A stretch of 64,000 nucleotides of DNA from positions 192,001 to 256,000 of the forward strand of contig JAHLVW010000062.1 of the NCBI GenBank assembly GCA_019058275.1, in the 5' to 3' direction. How positions within the stretch are numbered: position 1 is the first letter of the stretch; every line of letters starts with the position of its first letter. The stretch is from Candidatus Heimdallarchaeota archaeon. GTDB taxonomy: Archaea; Asgardarchaeota; Heimdallarchaeia; JABLTI01. Shown here piece by piece: positions 7,813-59,670 of this stretch. The translations under genes and the position numbers were made by a program. The notes below the pieces were generated by a model, which worked only from the letters and a program-made list of their open reading frames with translations, did no database searches and was not told the DNA's origin.

Positions 7813-7995
7813 GTCATACTTCGTTAGAAGCTATCTGAATCCAATTCCATTAAATAGTGCAAAAAATTTCATTCATTAATCTAGCAGCTTTCCTACATTT
7901 TTTTATATTGATTACTGTTTTTCATCATTTTCTTTATTTTAGTCTATTAAATTGATCATGAAAAATCTATTAAAAGAATTTGAATATTTTAATTT

Positions 7996-8610: not shown

Positions 8611-8616
8611 TGCTTC

Positions 8617-9231: not shown

Positions 9232-9276
9232 TTAACTGGACTCCTATTTTTAATATTTAGTTCAAATTTCTACTAA

Positions 9277-32132: not shown

Positions 32133-32143
32133 GAGGAATTAAA

Positions 32144-33508: not shown

Positions 33509-35455
33509 TTATCCCATTTTCCTTTTTCTTATTATTATCATAACAGGGATGATAAAAACTAAAGTTATAGTGAGTGTTATTATTGGTTTTTCAATTCCAA
33601 ACCAACCTGTTCTTGTATCATTTAGTGGTGGTTCTAATTCCTCAAAATCTGACAATGTATCATCAGTAGATACGTCAATACTAAGGACTTGCCCTACTTG
33701 AATGTCCTCAATTTTGTTTTCTTCCCAAACGATTTCTTCATTTAAGATATGTCTAACGGTCAGGTTGATATCTTGAAGAGCGCTTGCTGCTGTGGAAGCA
33801 TTTACTACAACGCTAAATAAACCTGAAGAATCCTTTCTCAGAGCTTGTATGCTTGTTGCTGGAATCCTGATGTTTGTCATACCAAACAACATGTCATCTG
33901 CAAATGATGCTCCTTCTACACCTACTTCTATTCCTGGAAAACTCATCGGATTAGAACGTCCGATATGTAGAGGTCTCTCAAATGGATCTGTTTCTATAAA
34001 CACATGCATATGAATGGTTGGGTCAATTGGTCCAATTTGTATTTCATATAATTCTAAATATTGGTAATGATCAAAAACTAAGTAGTTTTGAGGATAAGTA
34101 CCAAAAATGAAATCATCCCAGCTTGTATCTTTTGAGATGTCAAAATCCTCGTATAGATAAGGATAAAGGAATCCAGTATACACATCTAATGTATCTGGAA
34201 AGCAAATTGTGAAACCAGTTATGTTATCATCACGAAATGATTCCGTTATAAATTGTTTATGCAATATTTTCCCTGAACCTTCTGATAACTTATCAAGTAA
34301 TTGTATTCCATAGGTTTCAAGAAGTGTACCATAAACCATTTTATGCCTATTATCTAAGACTGCTGACACAAAATCACCAAGATCAAGCATCATACATTTA
34401 GAGCTAATTAAATTGAGAGGATAAAACAGCTTTCCTCTTATTTCTCTAAAAAGTTCCTGTCCTCTTGTTATGTTCTCATATAATTCATAATATAGTGTTT
34501 CTACAAAATCAGTGAAAATACCTGATAAACTATCTCTACCGGTATGTGGCAGCTTATGTAGTTCTGTTAAGTCATATATAGCAACTGTTGGCCAAACAGG
34601 TCGACCACCATAAGGATCATCTGGGGCAATTATTGGGTTTGCTGCCCCACTAAACCCAATATCTGCTAACATTGAACTATCAATACCAGTATTTCTACTT
34701 AAATTATAGAGGATATCCATAGGATGGTAAAGTGCTGAACCTCTTTGAATTGTCTCTCCAGCAACAACATAATGAGCATTACCTTCTAACTGCCACATAA
34801 GCTCAAATGATCCTCCTAAACAAGTATCTAAAAAGATAACATCTACTCCTCGTACCCATGTAAGAGCATCATCAAATTCATCAATCTCTAAACAATCACC
34901 TAATGCATAATCAAAGTAAGGATGTGAAGCGTGGTAGTCAAAACAAAGCCCTGCATATCCCACGTCCATGATCAGACATGAGCAAAGCATAATTGTTTGC
35001 TGGATAGTTTGTTTTGCAAAAATCGATGAAATCTCGTAAAGTTATGGGATTACCCATATTTCTAGCTCCATAATTTGCTAAAGTAGTTATAATATTCTTA
35101 CGAAGCTCATACAATTTACATTGTCCATAAGGGTAATCTGCAGAATAAGGATGATCAAAAAGAGCGATTACATTCAAGTTTGTATGTGAACCATCTAACA
35201 GTTGATTGTGATAAATATCATTTATTGTATAGAACATTGCTTGTCCTAAACCATTTAATGAATTGTCCAATCTTGAGTAACATAACTGTCTTGAGTATCT
35301 GCACAAAAATATAACATGAAAGTCCAATTTTTGACTGCTTGCGGTCTAATCTCAGGTTCAATCGTAATGTTAGATTGTTTTGCGTTAGTAAAAATTGGAG
35401 TTAATAAAATAAAAACTATAAATAGAAAGGTTAGGTAATTTAATCCCTTTTTCAT
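33509..35455 (-). pseudogene. Clostripain (peptidase C11) family, secreted and C-terminally anchored; two frameshifts
   Basis: NWTFMLYFCAD, YPANNYALLMSDHG, IFLDTCL; C-terminal TM and basic tail; frameshifts near 35280 and 34960. Confidence 0.85.
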
Positions 35456-35940: not shown

Positions 35941-36912
35941 TTATTTTTTCAAAAATTTTCTTATTTGAATTGAAGAAAATATTATAGAACTTAATGCTAT
36001 TACTACTCTGAAACCACTTATACTATTAGTGAAATCTCTATCACATGGATCATCTGTATTCATATCTCCAATATCAGGTGGAACACATATACTATAACCA
36101 GCTATATCAATAAAATACCTTCCAGCTTTTAAGTGATGACAATATTCAATGATATCTGGATTACATAAACAGCTATTTTGAAAGTAAACTGGTGTGTTAA
36201 CAATGGAATATGAACTTCCATGAACAATCTTGTTAATTTCTTCTCTGTTAATTGCATAAGCTATTGCTTTTCTGACTGCTAAACCTATTGACATTTTAGG
36301 TCTTAAAGGACAGGGATCTCTATTACCTATTGCAGGTCTAGCTTCTCGCATATTGAAAGCAAGCATACTGAATGAATCATTATCCTTTGTAAAGAGAGGG
36401 ACTCCTGGAAGGATTTTATCCATGAGATACTGTTGCCATTCCCAGTTAAGATTTATGCTAGCATTTGAATCTGGAGGATATAATTGCGAACCATTTTGTA
36501 TATACCATTCATTTCTTCCTGTTTGCAGCTCATCATCCCAATCCATACTAGTATCATATCCAAATACATTATAGATTCCATTTTCGCTATAATAGTTAGT
36601 CAAATAAGGATCAAATTCTGTTTGATTTATTTCTATTATCGTTAAATCAAAATTTCTGAAAGTCATTAATTCATTCTGCCAAACAAAAGGATCTTGGATA
36701 GTTATTTTTAAATCTATGCCAATAAATCTTAATTGTTGTTTAATCAAATTGAAATAGTCAACACCATAACTATCTGATGGAATTTTCGCATAGAGGTAAA
36801 AATATGCATATGGTAATTTTTGTAGTGTGGGTTGCACCTGAATAATTGAGGATATAGTTAATATTAGAATAACTATACCAACTAAATTCTTTCTTTTTGA
36901 TTTTCCTCTCAT
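35941..36912 (-). CDS. Single-lobe (domain III only) permuted family-5 solute-binding-like protein, C-terminal TM anchor
   Basis: QQLRFIGI...LPGVPLF-TKDNDS-FSMLAFN...VRKAIAYAINREEIN. Confidence 0.8.
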   Translation of the reverse strand: MRGKSKRKNLVGIVILILTISSIIQVQPTLQKLPYAYFYLYAKIPSDSYGVDYFNLIKQQLRFIGIDLKITIQDPFVWQNELMTFRNFDLTIIEINQTEFDPYLTNYYSENGIYNVFGYDTSMDWDDELQTGRNEWYIQNGSQLYPPDSNASINLNWEWQQYLMDKILPGVPLFTKDNDSFSMLAFNMREARPAIGNRDPCPLRPKMSIGLAVRKAIAYAINREEINKIVHGSSYSIVNTPVYFQNSCLCNPDIIEYCHHLKAGRYFIDIAGYSICVPPDIGDMNTDDPCDRDFTNSISGFRVVIALSSIIFSSIQIRKFLKK

Positions 36913-37913
36913 CTTTTTATTCTCTTTTTATTTTGATATAAAATTACTAATGATACTGTAAATATTGAGCATAGAATAAATTCTATTGAGTTATCTATTG
37001 TAACGGTATTATATTCTTCACAAACTTCCTCCCATTTAGGCCAAGTAGGAATATCCTTCTTTTTTTCTTTCTGGCCACAAATTCGAGTAACGCCTAAATC
37101 ATATCCTGACAGTGTCATAACATCCCTACTTACTTGCAGATTGTGACAGTACTTTATAATATTAGGATTGCACCATGAGCTATTCATTAGAGTTATAGGC
37201 CAGTGTGAAATTTCGTATTTGCCACCATGAACAATATTATTTATCTCTTCTCTGTCTATTGCATAAACAATAGCTTTTCTAACAGCAAGACCAATTGATT
37301 TATCTGGATATAATGGACAAGGATCTCTATTTCCTAAAACTGGTCTTACTTCTCTTAAATTAAATACAAGCATACTTAGGGTATCGTTATTTATAATAAA
37401 AAGAGGTAAACATGGTAAAATATCATCCATCAGGTAATGCTGCCATTCCCAATTAAGTTTTAAGTTTTCAGTTGAATTCTGAGGATATAGAACTGAACCA
37501 TTTTGTATATACCACTCATTTCTTCCAGTTTCTAGCTCATCATCCCAATCCAAGGATATGTCATAACCAATTAGATTGTTGTATGTACCATTTTCACTAT
37601 ATAATTCTGGAAAATAAGGATTGAAGATTTCTTGCTTTAATTCTATATAAGCTATATCAAAATCACTCATAGAATAATAAGGCTCAACAAAAAGCGGATT
37701 GTTTGCTAAAATATCAAGTCTAATTCCAATTCTAGCTAATTGTTGTTTTACCAAATTCAAATAATCAGGACCATTGTTGTCACTTCTTGTTTTAGCTATT
37801 AAGAGAAAAAAAGAATCTGGATTTGCAGCTAATGTTTGTTTTTGAACGTAGAGTATGCTAGAACAGATAAGTAAAACTAATATGATTCTCTTTATCCTAT
37901 TCTTCCCAATCAA
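36909..37913 (-). CDS. Single-lobe (domain III only) permuted family-5 solute-binding-like protein, C-terminal TM anchor
   Basis: QQLARIGI...LPCLPLF-IINNDT-LSMLVFN...VRKAIVYAIDREEIN; ATGA overlap with the next gene. Confidence 0.8.
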   Translation of the reverse strand: MIGKNRIKRIILVLLICSSILYVQKQTLAANPDSFFLLIAKTRSDNNGPDYLNLVKQQLARIGIRLDILANNPLFVEPYYSMSDFDIAYIELKQEIFNPYFPELYSENGTYNNLIGYDISLDWDDELETGRNEWYIQNGSVLYPQNSTENLKLNWEWQHYLMDDILPCLPLFIINNDTLSMLVFNLREVRPVLGNRDPCPLYPDKSIGLAVRKAIVYAIDREEINNIVHGGKYEISHWPITLMNSSWCNPNIIKYCHNLQVSRDVMTLSGYDLGVTRICGQKEKKKDIPTWPKWEEVCEEYNTVTIDNSIEFILCSIFTVSLVILYQNKKRIKR

Positions 37914-37963
37914 TGTAATTTTCCATCCACCTTTTTTTTACTTTAATTGACTTCCCTTGCTTC

Positions 37964-38000
37964 AAAGACTATATAAACCTTTTTGGTTTATATAGTCTTT
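37964..38000. promoter_or_regulatory. Perfect 16-bp inverted repeat containing TATA boxes on both strands
   Basis: aaagactatataaacc-ttttt-ggtttatatagtcttt in a divergent intergenic region. Confidence 0.6.
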
Positions 38001-38142
38001 TATCTTTTACAAAATGTGGTTTTGAATGTTAGAACCTTAAGAAAATAACTAAGAATGAATAATTAAGAATCTGATAATCGTTAAAATAAGAACTGAGCAA
38101 TTTTTATGAATAGTAAAAACTAATTATATTAGAGGTAAGAAA

Positions 38143-38652
38143 ATGGAATTAATGGAAGGAATTCTAACTAGGAGAAGCATTCGTAAGTTTACTGATAAAT
38201 CGGTAACAAAAGAAATCATCGATGATTTATTACGAGCAGCTATGCAAGCACCATCAGCTGGAAATAATCAACCATGGCATTTTGTAGTTATTGATGATCG
38301 CAAGATATTGGATAAAGTTCCTGATTTTCATCCTTATTCAAAAATGTTGAAAGAAGCTCCAATAGCAATTTTGGTTTGTGCTCAAGTAACAACTGAGAAA
38401 TATTGTGATTACTGGGTACAAGATTGTTCTGCTGCAACACAAAATCTACTTTTAGCAGCACATGCTAAGGGACTAGGTGCAGTTTGGTTAGGAATGTATC
38501 CTAGACAAGAAAGGGTTACTGGAATTCAAGAACTATTAGGACTTCCAGCAGATATTATTCCTCTCTCTTTGAATGCAATTGGTTATCCTGCTGAGAAGAA
38601 AGAACCGGCTGATCGATACAATAAAGATAAAATTCGTTACAACAAATGGTGA
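38143..38652 (+). CDS. Nitroreductase family protein
   Basis: RRSIRKF, APSAGNNQPW, LAAHAKGLGAVW. Confidence 0.93.
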   Translation: MELMEGILTRRSIRKFTDKSVTKEIIDDLLRAAMQAPSAGNNQPWHFVVIDDRKILDKVPDFHPYSKMLKEAPIAILVCAQVTTEKYCDYWVQDCSAATQNLLLAAHAKGLGAVWLGMYPRQERVTGIQELLGLPADIIPLSLNAIGYPAEKKEPADRYNKDKIRYNKW

Positions 38653-38757
38653 TTTATCACCTTCCTTTTTTTTTGCCCCCACCAACGATTTATTAAATGA
38701 TTTTAGATACTATTTTTTAGTGGTTCAAGTTAAAAAACTGAATTTTTGGGATTTATT

Positions 38758-39096
38758 ATGAAAATCAAATTGTTAATTAACACACCAGACCTTTCAGTTG
38801 GAGGGAATTCTCCTAAGAAATCCGTTGATTTGAAATCAGATGACTATAAAGGAAAATCAATTAAGCAGGTCGTTTCAAAGCATATTTTCTCTGACATTCT
38901 ACAAGGACAAGATGAGAGTATAGCAGCCCAAGCTATTGAATTGTTATTTAATTTCGTTCAACCAAAAAATGTAACAGATGTTGATAACTGGTGGTCACAA
39001 CCTTTTGAATCTCTAATAGCTGATGATTTTAAAGAAGTTAATTTAGATTTGGAATTCAGCCAAGAAGGCATTGCTTTTATGGAACAAATGATGTAG
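38758..39096 (+). CDS. Hypothetical protein
   Basis: Intact ORF between two co-oriented genes, followed by a hairpin and T-tract. Confidence 0.55.
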   Translation: MKIKLLINTPDLSVGGNSPKKSVDLKSDDYKGKSIKQVVSKHIFSDILQGQDESIAAQAIELLFNFVQPKNVTDVDNWWSQPFESLIADDFKEVNLDLEFSQEGIAFMEQMM

Positions 39097-39108
39097 AAGG
39101 TCTCAAAT

Positions 39109-39134
39109 TAGGAGTTTTACTCCTATCTTTTTTT
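39109..39134 (+). terminator. Hairpin plus T-tract
   Basis: taggagt-ttt-actccta followed by T7. Confidence 0.5.
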
Positions 39135-39215
39135 CAATATTTCATTTCTTGATAACAAAATATAAGTAATGATAACATTTTCAAATATCGCAGAAAAGTA
39201 ATTGATGGATTCGAA

Positions 39216-40709
39216 ATGAAAGTTTCTACATTAATATCTGATCTGGAAAAAATCGATACACCATTATTGATTATTGGTGGTATCGAAAAGGCTAAGGATG
39301 ATTCATTAATTATCAAAGATCCTCTTGGTAAAATTATTAAAGATATAATAGATCTTGAGGATTTCAAAGGAGAATCAGGAAAACTAATCTTTGCTTATAC
39401 TCATGGAAAGCTTCCTGCAAAGCGACTTTTATTAATGGGTTTAGGTAAAGAAGAGGATTTGACAGCTGAAAGCATACGAAAAGCTTTTGGCGATGCATCA
39501 AGAAAAGCAAGAGATCTTGGAGTCAAGAAAATTGCAATCAGCTTAGATCACTTTCTAAGGAATAAACTTGATTTGGTAGATGTTACTGAGGCAATCGTTC
39601 AAGGATTAATTATGGGCAGTTTTCAAAATTTAAAGTACAAGACAAAGAAGCTTGATAAATTCAAACATCTAAAAGAACTAACTTTAGTTAGTAAGGATGT
39701 TGATGAGAAGAAACTCAAAAGTGCTGCTAAATCTGGTAAGATTATAGCTAATGCTGTTAATTTCAATAGGGAATTAGCATGGGGACCAGCAAATGACATT
39801 ACTCCTACAAAGCTTGCAGAAGAAGCTGATCGTTTAGCTAAAGAGCATGGTATCATAACAACTATTTTCGATCGAAAGAAATCAGAGGAAATTGGTTTAC
39901 ATAGTTTCATAGCTGTTGCACAAGGAACTGAGGAACCTCCTAAATTCATTATCATGGATTATGGTAGTGATAAAACAGATGTTGATACTATTGCTTTAAT
40001 TGGTAAAGCAATTACCTTTGACACTGGAGGTATAAGCCTAAAACCGGGACAAGATATGCTCAATATGAAAGCTGATATGTCTGGTGGTGCAGTTGTAGTT
40101 GCTGCAATGGAGGCTATTGCTAAACTAAAACCCAATTTGCGTGTTATTGGATTAGTTCCTGCTACAGATAACATGCCTTCAGGTAAAGCCTATCATCCAG
40201 GTGATGTAATCAAAAGTTATTCTGGACAAACTATTGAAGTCATAAGCACAGATGCAGAAGGTCGTATGGTCATTAATGATGCTTTAACATATGCTGCTCG
40301 TACCTATAAACCAAAAGCAATGTTTGATTTTGCTACTTTAACAGGTTCAATGATGATTGCTCTAGGTAGTCATGCAATAGGTTATTTTGCTAATGATGAT
40401 GAATTAGCAGTTATACTTGAGGAAGCATCTAAAACATCTGGTGAAAGAGTATGGCGTATGCCCTTATGGGAAGTTTATGATCAACAACTTAAGAGTGATG
40501 TGGCAGATTTCAAGCACACAGGAGGAAGACCTGGTGGAGCAATTACAGCTGCTAGATTTCTTAGCAAGTTTGTTGAAGAAGTCCCTTGGATTCACATGGA
40601 TATCGCTGGTGTCTCAAGACAGGAAAGTGATAAAGGATATAACCCTAAAGGTGGCAAAGGAGCTGCTGTACGCTTAATAATAGATGTCATCAGAAATTGG
40701 AAACAATAA
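39216..40709 (+). CDS. pepA: Leucyl aminopeptidase (M17)
   Basis: GKAITFDTGG, MKADMSG, STDAEGR, ATLTG, WIHMDIAG. Confidence 0.95.
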   Translation: MKVSTLISDLEKIDTPLLIIGGIEKAKDDSLIIKDPLGKIIKDIIDLEDFKGESGKLIFAYTHGKLPAKRLLLMGLGKEEDLTAESIRKAFGDASRKARDLGVKKIAISLDHFLRNKLDLVDVTEAIVQGLIMGSFQNLKYKTKKLDKFKHLKELTLVSKDVDEKKLKSAAKSGKIIANAVNFNRELAWGPANDITPTKLAEEADRLAKEHGIITTIFDRKKSEEIGLHSFIAVAQGTEEPPKFIIMDYGSDKTDVDTIALIGKAITFDTGGISLKPGQDMLNMKADMSGGAVVVAAMEAIAKLKPNLRVIGLVPATDNMPSGKAYHPGDVIKSYSGQTIEVISTDAEGRMVINDALTYAARTYKPKAMFDFATLTGSMMIALGSHAIGYFANDDELAVILEEASKTSGERVWRMPLWEVYDQQLKSDVADFKHTGGRPGGAITAARFLSKFVEEVPWIHMDIAGVSRQESDKGYNPKGGKGAAVRLIIDVIRNWKQ

Positions 40710-40731
40710 GGTGAAAGATATTTTTCACCTT
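40708..40731. terminator. 9-bp inverted repeat between convergent genes
   Basis: aaggtgaaa-gatatt-tttcacctt. Confidence 0.5.
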
Positions 40732-40741
40732 TAATTTTTTA

Positions 40742-42622
40742 TTAATTATATTTTCTAGGTTTCTTTTTGTTAATCAAAACTAATATTACAGCTGCAAAAA
40801 TTATCGCTATAGAATAGAGATTAATACTTAATTGAGTTGTAAAACCAGGGATATCAAAACCAGCTATTTCCATAAAAGTTTTAGCTCTTTTTAGGTTATA
40901 ATCATAGACAATGATATCGGGATTACACCAAATACCTAAAGCAGGATAAATTGGTGTATTATATATATAATAATCTCCATCATGTATAACCTGATTAATT
41001 TCTTCACGATTAATAGCATGACAAATTGCTTTTCTGATAGCCAATCCTTTTGTTAGTAATGGATCACGAGGAGCAGGATCACGATCCCCTAAAATTCCTC
41101 TCTCATTTCGAATATTAAAAGCTACAAAGCTAAACGAATATGTAAACTTTTTATGCACGTCAAAATTCCTGTCCTCTTGAAATTCTATTCTCTTTTCTCT
41201 ATTCCAACCTATTCCTTCAACATCTACCTTCCCAGCTTCAAATTCCAACAAAGATTTTTGTAAATCTGGTATAATTCTAATTCGTAATTGTGTTAATCCT
41301 CTTGAAAAATTTCCAAAACGTCGTTCCCAATCAAGATCTGGATTATTTGTTTTATCAGGATCTAACCACCAGCAATCAGGTCTAATAGTTAGTACAGTTT
41401 CAACACCTTGCACATAATTTCCTATTTCAAATAAGCCTGTTCCATATCCACTCTGTGAGTACTCATTCCATGATGCATGTGTAGTATTTGGAGTGATGTT
41501 ATCATCTAATTGTGTTTGATTTAGAAAATGCTCTGGAAGAATATACTCTGATATCCTGTGCAGATATGGTGCAAATGGTTCGTTTTCTGGAGTATTTGGA
41601 TTGCCATCAATAAAAATATCCAGAGTATATTCATCAACTATAACCATATCTTCTATCCATTCATATAGGTCCTGATTATTTGCTACCTCTTTCCAACAAT
41701 ACAATGTAAAGAAAACATCTCTAGCATCTAGATATTCATTTGTAAAACCCCAATCAGGTATATCTGCCCATTTTATACCTTCACGTATCTCAATACGAAT
41801 ATGTGTATCGTTTATATGTGTGAAGCTTTTTGCTAAGTGAGGCCAAACTGTTTGATCTGTATCAAACCAAATCAAAGGATCCAATGTAGCACTGGATACT
41901 AAATTTGATGAACTATCATTTTGAAACAAAGGTGAAAGTTCAGACCATTCAGCATCAGTTATGACTATTTCACTAGTGTTTTTTTGTCCTAGATGTTTAT
42001 CTGACCAAAACATCTTCCCCCAAGATTGAAGGATACCATCTGAATAATTGTAACCTTTAAGTTGTGACCAAGAAACAATAAAATAAGAAGGTGTAAACAT
42101 TGGAAGAAGTGGTAAAATATTATCCATAAGATGTTCTTGCCAATCATAATAATGTTGTATTCTCTCATCCGAATTAGGTGGCATAATGGTTCTTCCTTCT
42201 TTCAGATACCATTCATTTTTCCCAGTTCCTAGTTCATCATTCCAATCCATGGAAGTATCATAACCAAAAAGATTAAGTGAACCGTTTTCATCATAAACAC
42301 CAGTAAAATCTGGATTACCACCACCACCAGTAAGTCCAATGAAAGTAATATCAAAATTAAAGCCCATTAACATCTCATAAACAAATGTTGACCAATCAAC
42401 ATTTCTAATATTCAAATTAATTCCTATTCGATTTAATTGTTGATTTAACATATTGAAATAATCAGGTTTAACTCCTCCTCCGTGTTCTAAAGCTTCTAAA
42501 GTAAAGAATGGTGAAATAGAATTCGTCTTAATTGGTTCAACAAGAACTAATGTAGTTGATATAATGATTATAATATTTATACAGAGAGAAAACCTTCTCT
42601 TATTTCCCCTCAAAATACTCAC
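40742..42622 (-). CDS. Circularly permuted family-5 (DppA/OppA-like) solute-binding protein with C-terminal TM anchor
   Basis: PHLAKSF, IREGIKW, GTGLF, RKAICHAINR; the normally C-terminal segment (QQLNRIGI..DW) is at the N-terminus. Confidence 0.88.
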   Translation of the reverse strand: MSILRGNKRRFSLCINIIIIISTTLVLVEPIKTNSISPFFTLEALEHGGGVKPDYFNMLNQQLNRIGINLNIRNVDWSTFVYEMLMGFNFDITFIGLTGGGGNPDFTGVYDENGSLNLFGYDTSMDWNDELGTGKNEWYLKEGRTIMPPNSDERIQHYYDWQEHLMDNILPLLPMFTPSYFIVSWSQLKGYNYSDGILQSWGKMFWSDKHLGQKNTSEIVITDAEWSELSPLFQNDSSSNLVSSATLDPLIWFDTDQTVWPHLAKSFTHINDTHIRIEIREGIKWADIPDWGFTNEYLDARDVFFTLYCWKEVANNQDLYEWIEDMVIVDEYTLDIFIDGNPNTPENEPFAPYLHRISEYILPEHFLNQTQLDDNITPNTTHASWNEYSQSGYGTGLFEIGNYVQGVETVLTIRPDCWWLDPDKTNNPDLDWERRFGNFSRGLTQLRIRIIPDLQKSLLEFEAGKVDVEGIGWNREKRIEFQEDRNFDVHKKFTYSFSFVAFNIRNERGILGDRDPAPRDPLLTKGLAIRKAICHAINREEINQVIHDGDYYIYNTPIYPALGIWCNPDIIVYDYNLKRAKTFMEIAGFDIPGFTTQLSINLYSIAIIFAAVILVLINKKKPRKYN

Positions 42623-42733
42623 ACAATACTTACTGTCAAACTTATTATAAATACTTTTTAGTATAACAAAGTGTTTGATTCTTTCTTAGTATAAAAAAGG
42701 GATTTGACTAGTAGCAGTCACACCTATGCTTTA

Positions 42734-44596
42734 TCATGGACTAGGTTTTTTCTTGAAAAGGATAATAACAACAGCTACAGCAAGAATTAATGTTAAAGGA
42801 TAAAGATTGCCATTAATAGATGGAGTAAAATTAGGTATGTCAAAGCCAGCTATTTCCATAAACATTTTAGTTTTCGTTAAGTCATAATCATAGACTATGA
42901 TATCAGGATTGCACCAAATACCCAATTTGAATAAATTGGTGTATTATATATATGGTATTCTCCACTATGCATAATTTTGTTAATTTCTTCGCGATTAATT
43001 GCATGACACATTGCTTTTCTTATTGCTAATCCTTTTGTTAATAATGGATTGCTTGGAGCAGGTTCTCTATTCCCTAAAATACCTCTTTCTTCTCGAATAT
43101 TGAATATTACAAAACTAAATGTATAATGAATATTCTTCTGAATGCTATAGGTTGGATTTTGTTCTAAATCTAATCTCTTTTTTCTATTCCAAAAAATATC
43201 TACGATATCTACATTCCCAGCTTCAAATTCCAAAATAGAAGTCTGTAAATCAGGAATGATTTTAATTCTTAATTGTGACAACCTGCCTGAAAAATCACCA
43301 AAACGTCGTTCCCAATCAAGTGTAGGATCCTTAGTAATTGTAGCATTAAGTCTCCAACAATCAGGTCTTACAGTAAGAATTGTTTCAACACCTTCAATAT
43401 AGCTACTGATATTAAACAATCCTGTACCATAACAATTTTGCGAATATTCATTCCATGCTGGATGTGTGATATCTGGTGTTATGTTATCCACTAGTTGTGA
43501 TTGATTTAAAAAGTGTTCAGGAAACATTCTAATTGCAATTCTTGGAAGATACTTTGCAAATGGTTCATTTTCGGGAGTTAGAGGGTCTTCATCGATATAG
43601 AAGTCTATAGTATGATCATCAATTATAACCATCTCATCTATCCATTCATATAAATGTTGATCATTAGAGACTTCTTGCCAAAAATAAAATGTGAAGTAAA
43701 CATCTTTGGCATCTAGATATTCGTTAGTAAAACTCCAACTAGGTATATCTGCCCATTTTATTCCTTCACGTATCTCAATACGAACATGAATGTCATTTAT
43801 ATGAGTGAAGCTTTTTGCTAAGTGAGGTCAAACTGAAAGATCTGAATCATACCAAATTAGAGGATCCATTATAGCACTGGATATTAAACTTGTTGAACTA
43901 TCATCTTGAAAGAAAGGTGAAAGCTCAGACCATTCAGCTTCTGTTATGACTATTTCTCTTGTGCTTTTTTGTCTTGGATGTTTATTTTCCCATAACATTT
44001 TTCCCAATATTGTAAAAGACCATCAGTGTAATTATAACCTTCTAATTCTGACCATGTTGCTACATATCCATAAGATGTAAATGTTGGAAAAATTGGTAGA
44101 ATATTATCCATGAGATGTTCTTGCCAATCATAGTAATGTTGTATTCTTTCTTCTGAATTTGGTGGCATAATTAGTAAGCCTTGATCCATATACCACTCAT
44201 TCTTACCAGTTCCCAATTCATCGTCCCAATCCATGGAGGTGTCATATCCAAACACATTCATTGAACCGTTTTCATTATAAACACCAGTAAAATCAGGATC
44301 ACCTCCACAACCTGTTAACCCAATATATGTTATGTCAAAGTCTCGGTATGCGATCAATTCACCAACAAATTCTGGCCAATCAGCATACCTAACATTTAAA
44401 TCAATACCAATCTGACTCAATTGTTGATCTATCAAATGGAAATAATCGTATCTTGTAGGTCCACCACTTGCTATAGCATATAAAGTAAAAATGGGGTTAT
44501 AGAATCTCCTTTTGTTGGTTCATTAAAAACTAAAGGTGATGATTTTATAAGAACTGCAAAAATTAAAACGTAAATCCTCCTCATTTTGCCCCTCAT
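42734..44596 (-). pseudogene. Permuted family-5 SBP paralog, disrupted
   Basis: Collinear with 40742..42622; frameshifts near 44490, 44005 and 42925; TGA at 43828-43830 where the paralog has W. Confidence 0.88.
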
Positions 44597-44714
44597 TATA
44601 ACCACTCACAGTAATTAACATTGATTCAAAAAAATAAAAATTTTTCTGTAAAATAAGAGTTTCATTTATCAATCAGAGGATAAAAAATTGGTGTGATTAG
44701 TAATTATCACACTG

Positions 44715-46580
44715 TTAATTTTTCTTTTTAGTGAATTTAGATTTTCTTATGAAGAAGAAAATCACAACAACTATTGAAAAAATAACTGTTAATGAGTAAA
44801 TATTAGTACCAGCTGGAATGGTAAAATCTGGGATATCATAACCTGCAATTTCCATGTAAGTTTTAGCTTTGGTTAAATCATAGTTGTATTTAATGATATC
44901 TGGTTTGCACCATGTGCTTAATGTTGGATGAATCAGCCAATGGTTAATATAAGCATCTCCTCCATAGAAAATTCTGTTTAATTCATTGCGATTTATCGTA
45001 TAGCATATTGCTTTTCTTACAGCTAATCCCTTGGTTATATCAGAATCACCTGGTGCTGGTTCAAAATTATCTAGAATTTCATTATCTTGTAAGTTAAACA
45101 CAATAAATTCAAATGCATTACCCAATTTATTTTGTATAGTAAATGAATTACTTTCTTGATATTTTTGTCTTTTAAAATAATTACTAGAAATGGATATTAG
45201 ATCTATGTTTCCATCTTCAAAAGCTTTTGTTTCTACATTTTCATCTTCAATAATTCTAATTCGAAGTTGGTCTAATCCACCTGAGAAATCACCAAATCGT
45301 TCTACCCAATTAAGTTCTTCATCATTTGTTATATCTGAATCCAACCACCAACTATCTGGCCTAACAGCTAGAACTGTTTCTATATTTGGAGTGAATGAAT
45401 CTATTTCAAATAATCCTGTTCCAAAACAATGTGTAGCAAATGTATTCCATGAGGGATGAAAAATATCTGGTGTAACACCATCTTCCAATTGTGTTTGGTT
45501 TAAGTAGTGTTCAGGAAGTATGGGTAAGTCAAGGTATTGTATTAATGGAGCATAACCTTCCTCGTAATATTCATCTACGTATATTCTCATTGTTATATCA
45601 TCAACAATTTCTGTATCACCTAACCAGCGATAAGGATATAAATCACAGGAAACTCTTCTTAAGACATAAAAGGTGAAATAGCCATCTCTAATATCAAAAT
45701 AATGGTCAACAAACAATCCATCAGGATCTGTTGCCCATTTAATCCCTTCTCTTACTTCAATTTCTACTGTTGTGTCATTAATATATTCAATTCTTTTAGC
45801 AAGATGATTCTCTGCATTCTTGTTGCCATCAAATGTTACAAGTGAATCCATACATAAGGAACTAATAAACATCGATGAGCTATCATCTTGATATAATGGA
45901 TTAAGGTCTGACTAAGCATTATCAGCTATTACTATCTCATTTATGCTTGACTGTCCTGTATGTGAGCCATCCCAAGACATTTTACCCTAAGACCGATGAA
46001 TATCTTCTATATAATTATATCCTTGTAAATTTGACCAATGCGCTTTATAATTATAAGGAATAAAAGTAGGTAGCATTGGACATAGATTATCCATTAAATG
46101 TTGTTCCCAATTCCAATAATGTTGTATTCGTTCTTCGGAATTGTCCGGTAAGATTTTAGAACCCTCAGATAGGTACCACTCATTTAAACCAGTTTTAATA
46201 TCATCATTCCAATCCATACTAGTATTAAAAGCAGAAGACGTTCAATGAACCATTTTCACTATAAATACCTCTATAATCATTAGGATCAATGTCACTACCC
46301 GAAATACCAACATAGGTCATATCATAACTATGATGTTTAATAAGCTCAAAAACCATCGTTGACCAGCTAACTATATTTATGTCTAAATCAATACCAATTA
46401 GGTTTAGTTGTTGATCAATTATATTGAAATAATCAGCTCTTTCACCTTCATTTATTATTACTTTTAGAGTAAAGAATGGAGATGAGGTATCTCCTCTAAT
46501 GGGGTATATTGTGTAAAAGCTGATGAAATAAATAAGACTATGATTAAGCAATTTATGACCCTATACATTTTACCTCTCAA
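44715..46580 (-). pseudogene. Permuted family-5 SBP paralog, disrupted
   Basis: TAG at 45912-45914 and 45987-45989 where paralogs have W; frameshifts near 46228 and 46550. Confidence 0.88.
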
Positions 46581-46679
46581 GAAAATTCACCAAATAATAT
46601 AGATTCTTTTATAATAAATAATTTCTTATAAATATTAACATAATAAATTTGAAATAAAAAACAAAAGGGTAGTATTTAC

Positions 46680-47639
46680 CTACCACTCAGAATTATTTGT
46701 AACTAAATTTGCTTTTTTCTCTGCAACACTGATGGTGGCAATTGTACCTGAATTAAATTCAAGAAAATCAGACTGAATTCCATCATTAAAAATTACACCA
46801 TTTTCTGACATATGTGATTCGATGGTTAAGTCAATATCTGAATAAATGGTATCAAAGATAATACTAGCAGAAGATATTTTGCTAACAAAAGGTTCTCTAA
46901 CAGAGAAATAAATGTAATTAGCATCCCATGGAAATCGATATTCATCCTCTGTAGCTTGATCAATTTGTACACTATATTTTCTGAATTTATAAACTATACC
47001 AATTGCACCTGTAATTACTGAGCGAAACCAAGCAGTAGATCCAGCTCCTGTTGAAACGATAATTCCACTGGAGCTTTGACGTTCAGTAAAATTGTTAAAA
47101 GTTATTGTGTATCTTGCAGAACCATGTGATTTGTGACCAATAAATAAGTCATTTACTCCATATAATTGCTGTCCATTGTTTAATTTAGCAACAGCCATTG
47201 TCACTTTAATTGAATTAAATTCTCCATCAGCTACCTTTTGTAGTATTTTGGGAAATTGTTCAACAGAAAATGGAATCATTATTCCATCAAATCTTTTTGG
47301 ATCAGGATTTACAGCGATAATTAGTTGATTCTCGAGATACTTTGCAGTGTTAATAACTAATCTGTCTTGTCCTATACATACAATAAGATTATTTGGACCA
47401 AAGAGGAAATTAGGTAGAAAGGATTTCTCAATGATTTGAAATTTATACTCCAGAGGTATTGATTTCTTAAGTTTCTCAAGCGACAAATAGTATTGCTTAT
47501 GAGCATCTTCATATTCTTCAAAGGATCCGCCCATATGCTCTATGTAAAATTTTGCTTGTGATTTTGTATTAAATCGTTCAATTAATCCTTCTAACCACGT
47601 TTTCATGGTTACAACGACAATCTTATCAATCTTAGTCAT
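46680..47639 (-). CDS. NAD kinase-like (ATP-NAD/sugar kinase) protein
   Basis: GQD-x-LVINTAKY, NDLFIG, QSSSGIIVSTGAGSTAW. Confidence 0.8.
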   Translation of the reverse strand: MTKIDKIVVVTMKTWLEGLIERFNTKSQAKFYIEHMGGSFEEYEDAHKQYYLSLEKLKKSIPLEYKFQIIEKSFLPNFLFGPNNLIVCIGQDRLVINTAKYLENQLIIAVNPDPKRFDGIMIPFSVEQFPKILQKVADGEFNSIKVTMAVAKLNNGQQLYGVNDLFIGHKSHGSARYTITFNNFTERQSSSGIIVSTGAGSTAWFRSVITGAIGIVYKFRKYSVQIDQATEDEYRFPWDANYIYFSVREPFVSKISSASIIFDTIYSDIDLTIESHMSENGVIFNDGIQSDFLEFNSGTIATISVAEKKANLVTNNSEW

Positions 47640-47653
47640 CTCGATGACCTGTG

Positions 47654-48517
47654 TTACTTTTTAGTTCCCTTTAATATCGAGGCCAAGATTTCTGGAGTAA
47701 TAGTAAGTGTATCTATTTTATCTGCATTTTCACCTATTTCTTTGAGTGCCAAAGCTAATAATGTATCTGGTACTAATTTCTTGTATGCTGCTAATTCGGT
47801 TTCATTTGCTTTTGCTCGGAATTCTGCTTCTTTGAAGATGTTTTCACCTTCAAGAGCTACAAATTGTTTTCTCTTCTTTTCTAGAGCTATTTGGGAATTT
47901 AATTCATTTTCTTTTATTTTACTCTCTTGTTCAACTGCTGCTGCTCTTCGCTCAAATATAGCTTTGTCAGCTTTCATTTGTAAATTCTCACGATATTCAG
48001 CTTCTAAAGCTCTCGCAAGTTCAGGTGTTGGACGAATTGAAAGAAAAGTTACAGATAGAATATCTATGCCCATTTCTTTTATTATATTGCTACCTTCAAC
48101 AGATTCCATTATTTTACTGGCAAGCATTTCAGAAGAAACAAGTGCTTGTTCAAGCTCCATCTTCTCTATTTCACTTCTTGTTCTGACTTGAAAGACATTT
48201 TTAATTCTCATTTCAAGCTTCTCTGGATCTTCTGTCAGATATTGTTTTGATCTAGGATGAATCTGGAAATCAAGAATTGTTGCCATTCTTTTTGGGTCTT
48301 TAATTTTATACATAAAATGACCTTGTAGAGTAATTGCTTGGTTGTTCTTAGTTATCTCATTGAATACAAAATTAGAGTCAATAGTCATAGCAGGAATAGT
48401 TGCTATACTTGTATTGATTCTCCAATAGAAAAAGCTTAAACCATGACCTGATCGTCTTCTTTTTCCATTAACGAACTTGATAATAAATTTTGATGGATCA
48501 TCTTTAAAATAAGCCAA
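47654..48517 (-). CDS. SPFH/band 7 domain protein
   Basis: GHGLSFFYW, ALEAEYRE...AD-x-AIFERRAAAVEQE coiled coil. Confidence 0.8.
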   Translation of the reverse strand: MAYFKDDPSKFIIKFVNGKRRRSGHGLSFFYWRINTSIATIPAMTIDSNFVFNEITKNNQAITLQGHFMYKIKDPKRMATILDFQIHPRSKQYLTEDPEKLEMRIKNVFQVRTRSEIEKMELEQALVSSEMLASKIMESVEGSNIIKEMGIDILSVTFLSIRPTPELARALEAEYRENLQMKADKAIFERRAAAVEQESKIKENELNSQIALEKKRKQFVALEGENIFKEAEFRAKANETELAAYKKLVPDTLLALALKEIGENADKIDTLTITPEILASILKGTKK

Positions 48518-48834: not shown

Positions 48835-49566
48835 ATGACACAAAACACCAGTAGTATATCAAGATTAATTCGTTTTACAGAGGACAAAATTGTTTGCACT
48901 GGTGGTGTTGTTTTCATAGGAGACGGAAACACAGGTAAAACTCACACAGCTTTTAGTATTACTAATTATCAAGGAAAAGCCTTTTACAACCTTGATGATG
49001 ACACTTTAAAGAAATCCGTTAATCTTGAATGGGATTATTTTATCTTTCAATCAAACATTGAAGAGTATTTAATCAGAACCAGCTCACAAATATTTATTAT
49101 GCCTGGACAAAAAGGTAGAGCCAAACCTGGTGAAGGTTTAGCTTTTGAAGATGCAGCTGACCTTTATTTTCATGTAGCTCCAATAAAAATAGTTGTTGTA
49201 TTAATTTTAACTTATGATCTTTCTGACATCAAGACATTTCAAGAATTAGAATATTGGTTAGATAGAGCAATTGAAAGAGATATGATTCAAACTCATACTA
49301 GCATAATAATTCTAGGAACACATTTAGATGAATCTGATAATATTATGGTTTCAGATGACTATATTGATGATGCTAAAGACTTTGTTAAATCACTTATTTT
49401 TGCTAGAATAGGAATGGTTCTAGATTCAAATAAAATTCATTCTGTGAAAGTTTCCAATATTACTGGAGAAGGTATTGCAGATTTAAAGGACGCTATAAAC
49501 ATATCATTTCTAACTGCTTTCAACTTGTTTGGTTTCGTTAGTAATAAGAAAGAGATTTCATTTTAG
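48835..49566 (+). CDS. Divergent Ras/Rab-like small GTPase
   Basis: VVFIGDGNTGKT (G1), MPGQ (altered G3), LTYDLSDIKTF, GTHLD (altered G4), VSNITGEGI (G5). Confidence 0.8.
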   Translation: MTQNTSSISRLIRFTEDKIVCTGGVVFIGDGNTGKTHTAFSITNYQGKAFYNLDDDTLKKSVNLEWDYFIFQSNIEEYLIRTSSQIFIMPGQKGRAKPGEGLAFEDAADLYFHVAPIKIVVVLILTYDLSDIKTFQELEYWLDRAIERDMIQTHTSIIILGTHLDESDNIMVSDDYIDDAKDFVKSLIFARIGMVLDSNKIHSVKVSNITGEGIADLKDAINISFLTAFNLFGFVSNKKEISF

Positions 49567-49775: not shown

Positions 49776-52700
49776 ATGTTGAGAAAACAATCAAAGATTT
49801 ATTGTCTATTTTTGCTAATTTTATTTATCAATTCATTAATTTATTATTCAGAAATAAAAGGAGAAGAACCTTCTGTTAACAAAAAAGATGATTTAGAATC
49901 AGCTTCTCTTACATCAACTAACGCTGAGAATATTCCCAATCTTCCTGGAATTGTAGATTCTATTAACACAAGTGGAAGTTTCAAATTAAGAGCATTCTTC
50001 ACCCAAGATAATTTTGTTGATATAGATGAAAATGGATATGTTTACGAATGGGAGGACTATAATGATGTTCGATATAATGGTGAAGATAGTATTTATGCAA
50101 AATTCCGACAATATACTGGTTCCTCTGATCCAGATATATTTTGGCCCCCTGTTGATACATATCAACAATTACGTAGTGAAAGTTTAATTAATGGTGAACA
50201 TATTAACTCAACAGTTTTTAGTCCTGTTTTTAATTTTAATACCAAAATTCAAGGGAAAATCTTCTTCTTAGTCCATGGAGATGTTTGGCCTAGCTTTACT
50301 GCTAATTGGATATTGAAAATCACTTTAGATCTTTTTAACTCAACAGATAAAACTACAATATATGTAACTTCAACAGAGAATCATTTTGATGATACTCCAA
50401 ATCAAGGCACTACTTTTGAAGCAAATATAGCTAAAGCAGTTACAATCCCAGCTGGTTTCAGATTGAGGTTAACCTATGAAGTCATGAGAGATAGTGGTAC
50501 TCCTGAGGGTAACGTCGAAATAAGAACTGGTGAAGTTAATTTGGGATCAAATTTACCTTGGATTGTTAACGATATAAATAATACTTATGATAAAACATAT
50601 GCATTACACAATTTTCGCTCTACATTAGGTATACAGCTCTTAATGTATGAAGAAAGTTTTCCAACAATTGATTTAACAGGATTTACAAATAACACCATTT
50701 ATTCTGATTCTACTAATGCGACAATAACTGTTTCTGATTCCATACTAAACAATTACAAATGGGATAGTGATAGTTTTGCTGAATTCACATCACCATATAT
50801 TGTATCTTTACCAGAGACACAAGGTTGGCATACATTGACAATTAAAGCGGAGGATTATTATGTCAATATTATAGAGGATAGTTTTATTGTAGGTTATGAT
50901 TCATCACCTACAACTGTTATTTTAGAAAGTCCTGCAAACAATTCTCTGGTTACAGATGGACAAACATTAAACTTCTCAGTTTATGGAGTTACAGAAAATC
51001 CATATTATGAATGGGATAAAATTGCTCCGCAATATACTCTTCTTGGACCAGCTTATGATATTTATTTATCAACAGATTTTAATGATCTGCACAATTTAAC
51101 TATTTATGCTACAACAGATTTTGGTTTAGAAAAGTTCGTTTATTTCTTTGAATTTGATAATTCTGTTCCTGTAATTTCACTAAAAAATGTAGTTAACGAT
51201 ACAGATCAACCACCTTTCAAGAATATTGATGTTGAAATAACTGATAGAAGTGACCTAGAGATATTATATAAATGGGATGATGAAAATAGTAACTCTACTT
51301 GGGCTCCAATTGAAGGAGATACTTATAGAACTTATTTACCAGCTTCAGATGAGTATCATTTTCTATATATTTACGCTGAAGATAGTTTCAATCTTTCAAG
51401 TAAAGCTGTTTACAGATTTAATACAAGTGCCTTTACACTTTTGGTTGATTTAAAGACAATGGTGAATGGTTCATATTATTTTGGCAACGATATTGTTGAA
51501 GTCACTATCGTTAATTATAATTTAACATGCAAATATAAATGGGGAAATAATCCTTTGAGTATCGGTACTGTTATTGATAATACATTGAATTTAAGTGGAG
51601 GAGATGCTTTATCACAAAATCCTGGAACATATTGGTTAACAATAATTGTTTACGACCTACAACATTTACAATGCGAATTTGTTTTCAAATTTATAGTGGA
51701 TCGAGAAAAACCTACAATCATACAAGACCCAACAGATCCATATAATGATTTGAGATTCTTGCAAGCAACAACTCTTAGATTTACAATTGCAGATAACTGG
51801 ACAATTGCAGATCAAATAGAAATCTATCTATCTTTAGATAATGCAGCAAATGTTACTTATTCTGCAATAATTAACTACTATTTAGGTTCTGTTGAAGAAG
51901 GCTTGCATAATTTGACAATAATAGCTATTGATATAGCAGGTAATTCATACAAGTATTTCATTACTTTCACGATAGATATATCGAGTCCTGGAGTATCAGT
52001 AACTATTGACAAGTTAGCTACTTTATTAGATGGTAGCAGATATGTACCTGCTGATACAACAGTTACAGTTGTTTTAACAGATGATGATCTTACAATCAAT
52101 AGTTACTATAGCTGGAATTCTAATGATTATCTTTCATTCACAGATAATTTCACTTTACCTTCTACTGAAGGTTTTGCTGCTTTGATAATCAAAGCAAATG
52201 ATAGTTTAGGAAATTATAGAACTAGAACATACTGGTTAATAATAGATAACACTTCACCTTATATTACTCTAAAATTCATTAATAATGAATCAAAAATTAA
52301 TCTTGAAACAGCTTTAAGGTTTAATATTGAAGATTTATCCAACAATACAGTAGATCTCATAACAACCGAATGGAATCTAGATGCTGGTCCAAGCATAAAA
52401 GATGAAACTGACTTTACAGTTTATCTAATAGGATTATATCTAACACACACAGAAGCTAATTTAACAATTTACTCGCGTGATGTTGTAGGTAATGAACGAA
52501 CTCACGTTTATCTGTTTTATTTAGATTTTACAGCTCCTGTTTATGAATTAGTTGGATTAACAAACAATTCTTATGTCAGGGGAAATTCAACAATTGATTT
52601 CAATGTCATATCAAATGACTTATCATCATTCTATTATAGTTGGGACAACAATCCTGATTTAACTTCATTAAATGACCCTTGGGATTTACTTGTTCCTCTA

Positions 52701-54098
52701 GATGATGGAGTGCATAAACTATACATTTTCCTTGAAGATGATACTGGTGGTGGTTTGTTTACTAACTCAATCGAAGCTAACTATGTCTTTATTGTTGATG
52801 ATTTATCATTTGACTATATTACACCAAATGATTTCACTGATAATTACAACTATACTATGTTTTATGGTGAGAATTTCACTATTACAGTCAATATTACAGA
52901 TAGATGGGCAAATGATGAAATTGAAAATGTGTCATTTGCTGTAATTAAGGAAGATGCTTTATTGAATCTATCAGTAGACGTTAGAAATATCACAAATACT
53001 GAATATCTCATTACAATATTTGGAACTAATGTTACTAATGATCAACTAACTAGTATCGAAGTACGTTTCTGGCAAACAATAGGGAATAACCATTCTGTTT
53101 CTGTAAATCTAAGGGTAGACAAACTTAATGGTTATATTGTTATCCTGAGTACAAGTGAAACGATTATTTTTGGTGAGAATTTCACTTTGACTCTTCAATT
53201 ATTTGATAATCTTAATGATAGCTCACAAGAAATTCTTTACATAAGTGTTGATGGTAATGATCAAGACATATTCTATACTTGCATTGACGAAGCAAACCAA
53301 ATTTACCAAATTACCTTTAACACAAGATTCTTTGTAGAAGAGGAAGGAGAGCATTCATTCACCGTTCATATTGAAGCTAATTTCTATAGTAGCACTATTA
53401 ATAGTGATGTCCTTCAGGTTATAGTTCCATCTGGATTATCTTTACAATGGATAATCATTATAATTGCCTTAGCAGTTCTGTTTTCATTGGTCATGGGTTT
53501 TGTTATTTATAGAGTTGTTAGAGCAAGACCATTTGAAGAACTTATGAGCAAAGTCTCTGAAGAAGACATCAAAGCAAACATGGAAACAATGTCACCTGGT
53601 GTAATATTATCTATTTTTGACCAGAAGAAAGGACCAATTCCTCTAGTAGGAGATCATGCTCTTGATTCAGCTTTATACAATCATAGAATGCGTATAGGTG
53701 TTGAAAACTTCTTGCTTAAAATTTCAGATCAAGCTTATTCATCATTAGGATTTGAAGAACATGATGAAAGACGAAGAACTGGGTCTATTAATCTTCCTAA
53801 TGAAGATATGGTTGCTTTCATTCATGGTATTCAGCTAGCTAATCCTGCTATGCGAGGTGGATTCGAGAATCTTTCTCTAATTGTTCTTGCTGATAAAGAA
53901 GTTGGTGGTTTCCTCCTAGCGAACCAAGAATTCTTATTCCTTGAAATTGACGAATTAAAAGCTGCTCTGCAAGATAAGAAGGCTTTACCAGAAATAGAAA
54001 CTTTACTAACTAAAATACGAGAGCGTTCTCTAATCATAATGATTGCAGTACAAAAGAATGCTAAAAAAGATAAAAATAGCAAAGAAGAATACCAATAA
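49776..54098 (+). CDS. 1440-aa single-pass membrane protein: Ig-like ectodomain repeats, TM, cytoplasmic uDENN/longin-like domain
   Basis: Signal peptide; repeated YxWD...GxHxLxIxAxD...DxxxP units; TM ~53448-53510; VILSIFDQKKGP, RGGFENLSLIVL. Confidence 0.75.
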   Translation: MLRKQSKIYCLFLLILFINSLIYYSEIKGEEPSVNKKDDLESASLTSTNAENIPNLPGIVDSINTSGSFKLRAFFTQDNFVDIDENGYVYEWEDYNDVRYNGEDSIYAKFRQYTGSSDPDIFWPPVDTYQQLRSESLINGEHINSTVFSPVFNFNTKIQGKIFFLVHGDVWPSFTANWILKITLDLFNSTDKTTIYVTSTENHFDDTPNQGTTFEANIAKAVTIPAGFRLRLTYEVMRDSGTPEGNVEIRTGEVNLGSNLPWIVNDINNTYDKTYALHNFRSTLGIQLLMYEESFPTIDLTGFTNNTIYSDSTNATITVSDSILNNYKWDSDSFAEFTSPYIVSLPETQGWHTLTIKAEDYYVNIIEDSFIVGYDSSPTTVILESPANNSLVTDGQTLNFSVYGVTENPYYEWDKIAPQYTLLGPAYDIYLSTDFNDLHNLTIYATTDFGLEKFVYFFEFDNSVPVISLKNVVNDTDQPPFKNIDVEITDRSDLEILYKWDDENSNSTWAPIEGDTYRTYLPASDEYHFLYIYAEDSFNLSSKAVYRFNTSAFTLLVDLKTMVNGSYYFGNDIVEVTIVNYNLTCKYKWGNNPLSIGTVIDNTLNLSGGDALSQNPGTYWLTIIVYDLQHLQCEFVFKFIVDREKPTIIQDPTDPYNDLRFLQATTLRFTIADNWTIADQIEIYLSLDNAANVTYSAIINYYLGSVEEGLHNLTIIAIDIAGNSYKYFITFTIDISSPGVSVTIDKLATLLDGSRYVPADTTVTVVLTDDDLTINSYYSWNSNDYLSFTDNFTLPSTEGFAALIIKANDSLGNYRTRTYWLIIDNTSPYITLKFINNESKINLETALRFNIEDLSNNTVDLITTEWNLDAGPSIKDETDFTVYLIGLYLTHTEANLTIYSRDVVGNERTHVYLFYLDFTAPVYELVGLTNNSYVRGNSTIDFNVISNDLSSFYYSWDNNPDLTSLNDPWDLLVPLDDGVHKLYIFLEDDTGGGLFTNSIEANYVFIVDDLSFDYITPNDFTDNYNYTMFYGENFTITVNITDRWANDEIENVSFAVIKEDALLNLSVDVRNITNTEYLITIFGTNVTNDQLTSIEVRFWQTIGNNHSVSVNLRVDKLNGYIVILSTSETIIFGENFTLTLQLFDNLNDSSQEILYISVDGNDQDIFYTCIDEANQIYQITFNTRFFVEEEGEHSFTVHIEANFYSSTINSDVLQVIVPSGLSLQWIIIIIALAVLFSLVMGFVIYRVVRARPFEELMSKVSEEDIKANMETMSPGVILSIFDQKKGPIPLVGDHALDSALYNHRMRIGVENFLLKISDQAYSSLGFEEHDERRRTGSINLPNEDMVAFIHGIQLANPAMRGGFENLSLIVLADKEVGGFLLANQEFLFLEIDELKAALQDKKALPEIETLLTKIRERSLIIMIAVQKNAKKDKNSKEEYQ

Positions 54099-59508: not shown

Positions 59509-59670
59509 TTTTATAACACCTAAAATTACAGAAAGCAAAATGATATTTGTATTTTCTTGTAAATCTCTTCTAAGGAACTCGTAATTGCAAAATTAATAAT
59601 ATTATTATAAGCTAAATTCACTGTTTGTATGCTTTATATTGAAAAATATCAATTGGACTAGGTATTTAAC

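Follow-up and report, generated by a model that had tools for sequence, protein, structure and literature searches.

Family-5 solute-binding proteins (cluster C, Pfam SBP_bac_5, PF00496), structurally described in Escherichia coli DppA (1dpe, 1dpp), Bacillus subtilis AppA (1xoc) and NikZ (8efz, 4oet), are among the best-studied components of bacterial transport and serve as templates for biosensor design, where circular permutants have been made by hand. Among periplasmic binding proteins more widely, classes I and II are distinguished by a change in strand order, and engineered circular permutants are in use in biosensors. In crenarchaea, the oligopeptide-class binding proteins of S. solfataricus and A. 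pernix are exported by a signal peptidase I signal peptide and anchored in the membrane by a C-terminal transmembrane segment that follows a Ser/Thr-rich stalk (PMC3387779). Here, we analyzed a stretch of 64,000 nucleotides, referred to below as the window, from a Candidatus Heimdallarchaeota archaeon (assembly GCA_019058275.1, contig JAHLVW010000062.1, positions 192,001 to 256,000). Its gene at 40742-42622 on the minus strand encodes a family-5 solute-binding protein of 626 amino acids, named P0001, whose chain is circularly permuted: compared with DppA/OppA-type proteins, the C-terminal third stands first and the remainder last. The parts of the gene, in window coordinates, are listed below.

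40742-42622, minus strand: intact gene for the permuted family-5 solute-binding protein P0001 (open reading frame of 626 amino acids; Pfam SBP_bac_5, 120 bits; AlphaFold2 predicted local distance difference test (pLDDT) 89)
42515-42622, minus strand: residues 1-36, N-terminal basic n-region and hydrophobic helix, read from the sequence as a putative Sec signal peptide or N-terminal anchor
41978-42514, minus strand: part A, residues 37-215, the canonical C-terminal third (second half of domain III and last strands of domain I; Pfam 298-355, AppA 359-421, DppA 393-441)
41972-42037, minus strand: junction, residues 196-217 (G..QSWGxM....H.GQ), recognized by conserved columns, where the ancestral C- and N-termini are fused
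40847-41959, minus strand: part B, residues 222-592, canonical positions 1-345 (domains I and II and first half of domain III; Pfam 3-282, PDB profiles, VIA-align Z 21.5)
40766-40819, minus strand: C-terminal transmembrane anchor, residues 602-619, with a basic tail after it (from the sequence; AlphaFold2 helix 602-619; about 12 residues past the last helix)

An earlier note on this DNA had proposed the permutation for the whole family from a series of motifs, all of which are present, in the order quoted, in the translation of the gene. P0001 lies above the SBP_bac_5 gathering score (120 bits against a cut-off of 32.4) and does not keep the collinear N-to-C order of the model: residues 260-593 match positions 3-282 (E 1.6e-34), and the N-terminal 240 amino acids searched alone place residues 49-106 on positions 298-355 (E 3.4e-6). 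When a profile of 67 family sequences was compared with PDB sequences, AppA (1xoc) was matched in three offset pieces (profile 226-415 on chain 35-208, 431-588 on 205-346 and 34-96 on 359-421); the start of the family therefore continues where its end stops. On the E. coli DppA sequence, the family hidden Markov model (HMM) likewise gave three pieces in swapped order (15.9 + 1.8 bits), and the same HMM with its halves restored to canonical order aligned as one piece across the junction (DppA 308-441, 28.6 bits). The offset diagonals predicted for a split-HMM comparison were thus obtained against both AppA and DppA, with no single collinear alignment. The AlphaFold2 model of P0001 (pLDDT 89, predicted template modelling score 0.84) is confident across the junction, and its best Foldseek matches are family-5 proteins including NikZ, DppA and AppA (E 1e-13 to 1e-15). 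VIA-align superposed model residues 217-594 on residues 1-345 of DppA 1dpe (Z 21.5, root-mean-square deviation 3.4 Å, 324 aligned residues); the superposition covers this part of the chain, and residues 37-215 are placed by sequence profile only. Four independent tests, namely the Pfam pieces, the offset diagonals, the re-ordered HMM and the structural comparison, identify P0001 as a circularly permuted member of cluster C. According to the model, the bilobal three-domain fold is predicted to be kept and to be otherwise unchanged from the canonical one.

The cut directly follows the AKxLLxEAG helix, as the earlier note had placed it, and corresponds to about residue 345 of mature DppA. In domain III, the ‘YDxxKAKxLLxEAG’ helix is canonically succeeded by a strand that now forms the N-terminus; the helix itself, in the form AKxFMEIAG at the end of part B, provides the new C-terminus before the transmembrane anchor. 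Part A ends at residue 215 and part B starts at residue 222, with model residue 217 aligned to DppA mature residue 1. The linker that was claimed to join the old termini is present as a short conserved junction with G196, Q199, S200, W201, G202, M204, H210, G212 and Q213 invariant or nearly so. At the N-terminus, residues 5-27 are predicted by AlphaFold2 as a helix, beyond which the model is of low confidence for a stretch. Signal peptide and C-terminal anchor alike would leave the domain-III lobe, which agrees with the proposal that the membrane tether has shifted to domain III. A PGF-CTERM sorting signal was not recognized, as no NCBIfam model for it matched P0001 at E <= 0.1; P0001 has ‘IPGF’, its paralogs have PNF or PDF, and the family consensus is without PGF. 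Circular permutations usually arise by duplication and trimming, a route with which the tandem arrays of this family would be compatible. Long relatives from metagenomes (P0122, P0124, P0125, P0128, P0135 and P0139; about 930-1770 amino acids) combine one or two permuted modules, two of them in one chain in P0122 and P0128, with TSP3_bac repeats, which are calcium-binding repeats of the bacterial type and form a long stalk.

The genes do lie in tandem arrays, and the assembly is a metagenome-assembled genome (MAG) of 118 contigs with an estimated contamination of 6.8%. The order could therefore be suspected of being an artefact of assembly or gene calling, in which the end of one tandem canonical gene is joined to the start of the next. 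P0001, however, occupies a single uninterrupted frame of 626 codons that starts with a signal peptide, runs through the conserved junction linker and ends with a membrane anchor, and the model is confident where the two parts meet. When 1.84 billion cluster representatives were searched exhaustively with the HMM, 152 matched at E <= 1e-30; among the best 150 of these, which come from many samples, 149 have the order of P0001, the 150th (E 1.6e-32) being canonical. The permuted order also occurs in closed, single-contig genomes. The artefact reading is already refuted.

We then considered how far the permuted form extends. A word-index search retrieved 334 relatives, the best 120 of which are about 620 amino acids long, most with near-full coverage; those among the 120 that bear names are mostly labelled as Heimdall-, Gerd-, Thor- or Asgard-group archaea. 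In a sample of 151 genomes of the phylum, the P0001 subfamily (E <= 1e-20) was confined to the family of the window's genome and one sister family, where all 13 genomes contain it, frequently as tandem arrays. All PF00496 loci of the window's genome (4.12 Mb) have the permuted order and fall into two subfamilies; no canonical family-5 binding protein was found among them. The second subfamily is represented at 7493-9277 of contig C10, 33912-35717 of C94 and 173600-175384 of C55. Further permuted genes broken by frameshifts and stops were seen at 66598-68400 and 81409-83000 of C44 and at 32809-34552 of C80. Genome-wide, both subfamilies include frequent pseudogenes. For two closed relatives (G026 and G074), all PF00496 matches end at about profile position 300, a signature that corresponded to permutation wherever it was checked directly.

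The same cut site was found in other Asgard families (L022, L031 and L039), in Thermoproteota MAGs, for which BLASTP with DppA gave two high-scoring segment pairs in swapped order (canonical controls gave one), in a Geothermarchaeota MAG, in Desulfurococcaceae archaeon AG1 and in a Desulfobacterales MAG. The contig of the last is truly bacterial, since it carries a sigma-54 activator. A tree built from re-ordered sequences shows the P0001 family as one well-supported clade and the permuted sequences overall as interleaved with canonical ones; the permuted rows need five to six changes on this tree, two to three of which are forced by well-supported branches. These sequence relationships suggest more than one origin or reversion of the permuted form. 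A common origin of every protein with this cut was also considered, and the corresponding grouping was rejected by the approximately unbiased test (delta log-likelihood 93.6, p 0.0009; 45 rows, LG+G4). Separately, a second circular permutation was encountered in a Nitrososphaerota MAG (CAYWZQ010000002.1; L054 7431-9497) and in P0309 and P0331. Here, the cut lies near Pfam position 143, and the chain runs from the second half of part B through part A to the first half of part B; in the Nitrososphaerota MAG, oppB, oppC, oppD and oppF follow the gene directly. The literature search returned no description of a natural circular permutation in family-5 proteins, although characterised crenarchaeal OppAs may still be permuted.

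Within the window (about 31% G+C, read under translation table 11), P0001 is the first of three tandem relatives on the minus strand at 40742-46586, of which only 40742-42622 is intact. By tblastn, three further relatives lie outside this array, at 12152-13207, 35941-36912 and 36909-37913. These relatives and the adjoining peptidase gene are as follows.

42734-44605, minus strand: tandem copy 2, a pseudogene in pieces in at least three reading frames, with TGA replacing the conserved Trp before PHLAKS
44715-46586, minus strand: tandem copy 3, a pseudogene with at least one frameshift, two in-frame TAG codons and loss of the junction region
12152-13207, plus strand: truncated member with part A and the first ~37 positions of part B, and unrelated sequence beyond
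35941-36912, minus strand: half-size member (323 amino acids), part A positions 3-145 joined straight to part B 272-370, that is, the domain-III lobe alone
36909-37913, minus strand: second half-size member (334 amino acids) of the same architecture as 35941-36912
39216-40709, plus strand: M17 leucyl aminopeptidase (Pfam Peptidase_M17, E 3.6e-117), convergent with the intact gene and 33 bp from it

The six members counted in the earlier note are therefore all there, but a single one is an intact full-length gene, and of the three tandem copies only one is whole. Copy 2 is 68% identical to P0001 over residues 201-560 and contains one TGA; copy 3 is 49% identical, contains two TAG and retains an open reading frame of 385 amino acids without a signal peptide. 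Because each carries several independent lesions, copies 2 and 3 are pseudogenes and not the product of single sequencing errors. Genetic code 4 was considered as the cause of the broken copies and rejected: TGA is absent from the long open reading frames of the window, and TAG, TAA and frameshifts are also among the breaks. Tandem duplication followed by decay would account for the present array of one live copy and two pseudogenes. For the half-size pair (35941-37913), the permutation itself may have paved the way: with domains I and II turned into one central block, one internal deletion would be enough to yield a single-lobe paralog. The truncated copy at 12152-13207 is followed by a tyrosine recombinase (Phage_integrase) gene at 13719-14777, and its disruption by a mobile element is suggested.

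The surroundings of the array were compared with those in a genome of the same genus (G123; L131, contig C101, 9000-24011), where band7, hypothetical, M17 and nitroreductase genes are followed by four tandem full-length permuted genes. Set against window positions 35941-48517, the half-size pair occupies the place of this four-gene array, next to the nitroreductase gene, and the window's own three-copy array sits between the M17 gene and the hypothetical gene, unlike in G123. As regards conservation of the M17 adjacency, the G123 array adjoins the nitroreductase gene, beyond the aminopeptidase gene, and the loci of the other relatives are short.

To what the permuted proteins might deliver their ligand was addressed by searching for transporter genes. 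The earlier note had reported no permease or ATPase nearby, and the window's contig indeed carries no permease and no Opp-type ATPase; the absence of transporter genes near permuted genes extends, by coordinates, to five related genomes. Elsewhere in the genome, Opp-type permeases with OppC_N or BPD_transp_1_N domains are encoded on five contigs (C96, C69, C44, C10 and C84), including pairs at 7641-9762 of C96, at 41721-43827 of C69 and at 323-1444 of C44 with 2-700 of C10. The C96 and C69 pairs, which were examined closely, stand alone between unrelated genes (LysRS; UvrC and TFIIB), with no binding-protein or ATPase gene adjoining them. Five OppD/F-type (oligo_HPY) ATPases are scattered over four contigs; only the C10 ATPase pair adjoins a permease gene, and the transporter genes are otherwise dispersed. 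The suggested search for cognate permeases thus uncovered permease pairs and ATPases, none of them adjacent to P0001-type genes. On C10, an OppC/OppD/OppF group is found no more than 7 kb from one gene of the second permuted subfamily (7493-9277). Opp-type permease pairs are also present in the closed relatives G026 and G074, where all PF00496 matches bear the permuted-type coverage signature. In Desulfurococcaceae archaeon AG1 (L105 7731-9539; Pfam 1-287 at residues 292-592), oppB and oppC come directly after the permuted gene, and in the Desulfobacterales MAG (L069 2574-4223; Pfam 1-285 at residues 257-544), oppB, oppC and oppD/F do.

Since all PF00496 loci are permuted, no family-5 candidate other than the permuted proteins is available to serve the Opp permeases of this genome. 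These otherwise unserved permeases and ATPases, the proximity on C10 and the operonic relatives with the same cut together argue that the permuted form is still a transporter receptor. It would capture its ligand between the lobes, as before, and hand it to Opp-type ATP-binding cassette (ABC) importers encoded elsewhere in the genome. Going by the gene content, P0001 is thus probably a permuted but working receptor of an ABC importer with unlinked genes. The suggestion of the earlier note that the proteins may be orphan surface receptors did not hold up as the best reading, given that the Opp permeases lack any other family-5 protein and that same-cut relatives stand directly upstream of oppB/oppC.

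Several observations weigh against an importer receptor. The permuted genes adjoin no permease genes in six genomes of two Asgard families (that of the window and five relatives, by coordinates), and the sole two canonical SBP5 genes found in those families adjoin permease pairs. The family is expanded and decays fast, and it includes half-size derivatives, which cannot close on a ligand, as well as fusions with long TSP3-repeat stalks. Residues R383 and D436 of DppA (precursor numbering; both named in the title of entry 8z1z), the Arg and Asp that clamp the carboxyl and amino termini of the peptide, align with a Thr/Glu column and a Gly column, respectively, in HMM alignments of only 20-30 bits. 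Peptide binding in the manner of DppA is therefore unlikely, since the clamps are not conserved, a point that is suggestive rather than firm. The NCBIfam equivalogs offer no closer assignment: the best, Opp4A, scored 72.7 bits against a cut-off of 650, nickel_nikA scored 37 against 393, and P0001 matched none of the DppA or OppA models at E 0.1 or better.

The same observations could be taken to mean that the expansion in the Heimdall group has left ABC transport altogether and forms a variable, membrane-tethered repertoire of ligand- or surface-binding proteins for sensing, adhesion or substrate retention, with the half-size and stalked forms as further steps along this path. Besides the unlinked genes in six genomes, the operonic canonical SBP5 genes of the same group, the many pseudogenes, the single-lobe paralogs, the one- and two-module TSP3_bac proteins and the lost clamps, it would accommodate a genome (G133) with 30 PF00496 matches and tandem arrays of four to five genes. 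Against it, the Opp permease pairs and ATPases here and in the two closed relatives would be left without any binding protein, the same-cut relatives are plainly operonic and the full bilobal fold is predicted with high confidence to be kept. Moreover, several binding proteins commonly share one unlinked translocator, the Borrelia OppA paralogs being an example. We consider it unlikely that the expansion is a fast-evolving repertoire of receptors and surface modules outside ABC transport, enabled by a permutation that makes domains I and II a central block and puts both tethers on domain III. In that reading, a single deletion from the central block would yield a stand-alone lobe. An importer receptor encoded apart from its transporter is the reading that we favor.

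As to the ligand, the genomic context points the other way from the lost clamps, with peptidase genes of the M17, TldD/PmbA (a pair), C11 and S12 types lying around the array. In order along the window, this neighborhood comprises an S33-type hydrolase (22020-23768), the TldD/PmbA pair (30741-33487), a C11 clostripain-like protein (33509-34990), the M17 aminopeptidase (39216-40709) and an S12/Pab87-like protein (58096-59538). Other parts of the window contain eukaryote-like signature genes typical of Asgard archaea: a weak Ras-family match at 48835-49566, an open reading frame of 1440 amino acids without a Pfam match at 49776-54098 and a protein of 565 amino acids with an N-terminal Gtr1/RagA-type GTPase domain at 54192-55889. 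At 27686-29419, a class-III aminotransferase is fused to a C-terminal SCP2 sterol-carrier-like domain.

Taken together, the permutation, which is real, apparently undescribed and of clear interest for both protein evolution and Asgard physiology, most likely represents an ordinary function in an unusual topology. The family provides a natural permutation that recurs at one defined loop on several branches of its tree, together with a second natural cut site, and the permuted examples inside ordinary opp operons suggest that the transporter tolerates a rearranged receptor. The rearrangement escapes standard annotation, since just two-thirds of the protein are covered by the Pfam match. In most Heimdall-group Asgard genomes examined, no family-5 binding protein other than the permuted form appears to be present; any reconstruction of peptide or oligosaccharide uptake in this group depends on the permuted proteins.

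Compared with known systems, P0001 shares fold and family with canonical cluster C proteins, to whose structures it aligns with VIA-align Z scores of 21-22 over about 320 residues. It differs from them in a chain that has canonical positions ~346-507 first and 1-345 last, in R383/D436 clamps that appear not to be conserved in the family and in genes unlinked to oppBCDF in the window's genome. With the crenarchaeal proteins, it has in common the logic of export and anchoring, an N-terminal signal peptide and a C-terminal transmembrane segment; its anchor, however, follows about 12 residues past the last helix without a Ser/Thr stalk and leaves domain III, whereas the crenarchaeal anchor would leave domain I. 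Similar in architecture are the proteins of Desulfurococcaceae archaeon AG1 and the Desulfobacterales MAG, with the same cut site and the Pfam match at the C-terminal end, but their genes lie directly upstream of oppB/oppC and on branches of the tree other than that of the P0001 family, and the Desulfobacterales protein, which ends five residues past the Pfam match, has no room for a C-terminal anchor. The change between class I and class II and the engineered permutants show that the flytrap fold tolerates new termini. Whereas the former is an ancient class-level difference and the latter are laboratory constructs, the present permutation is natural, recurrent and contained within one Pfam family.

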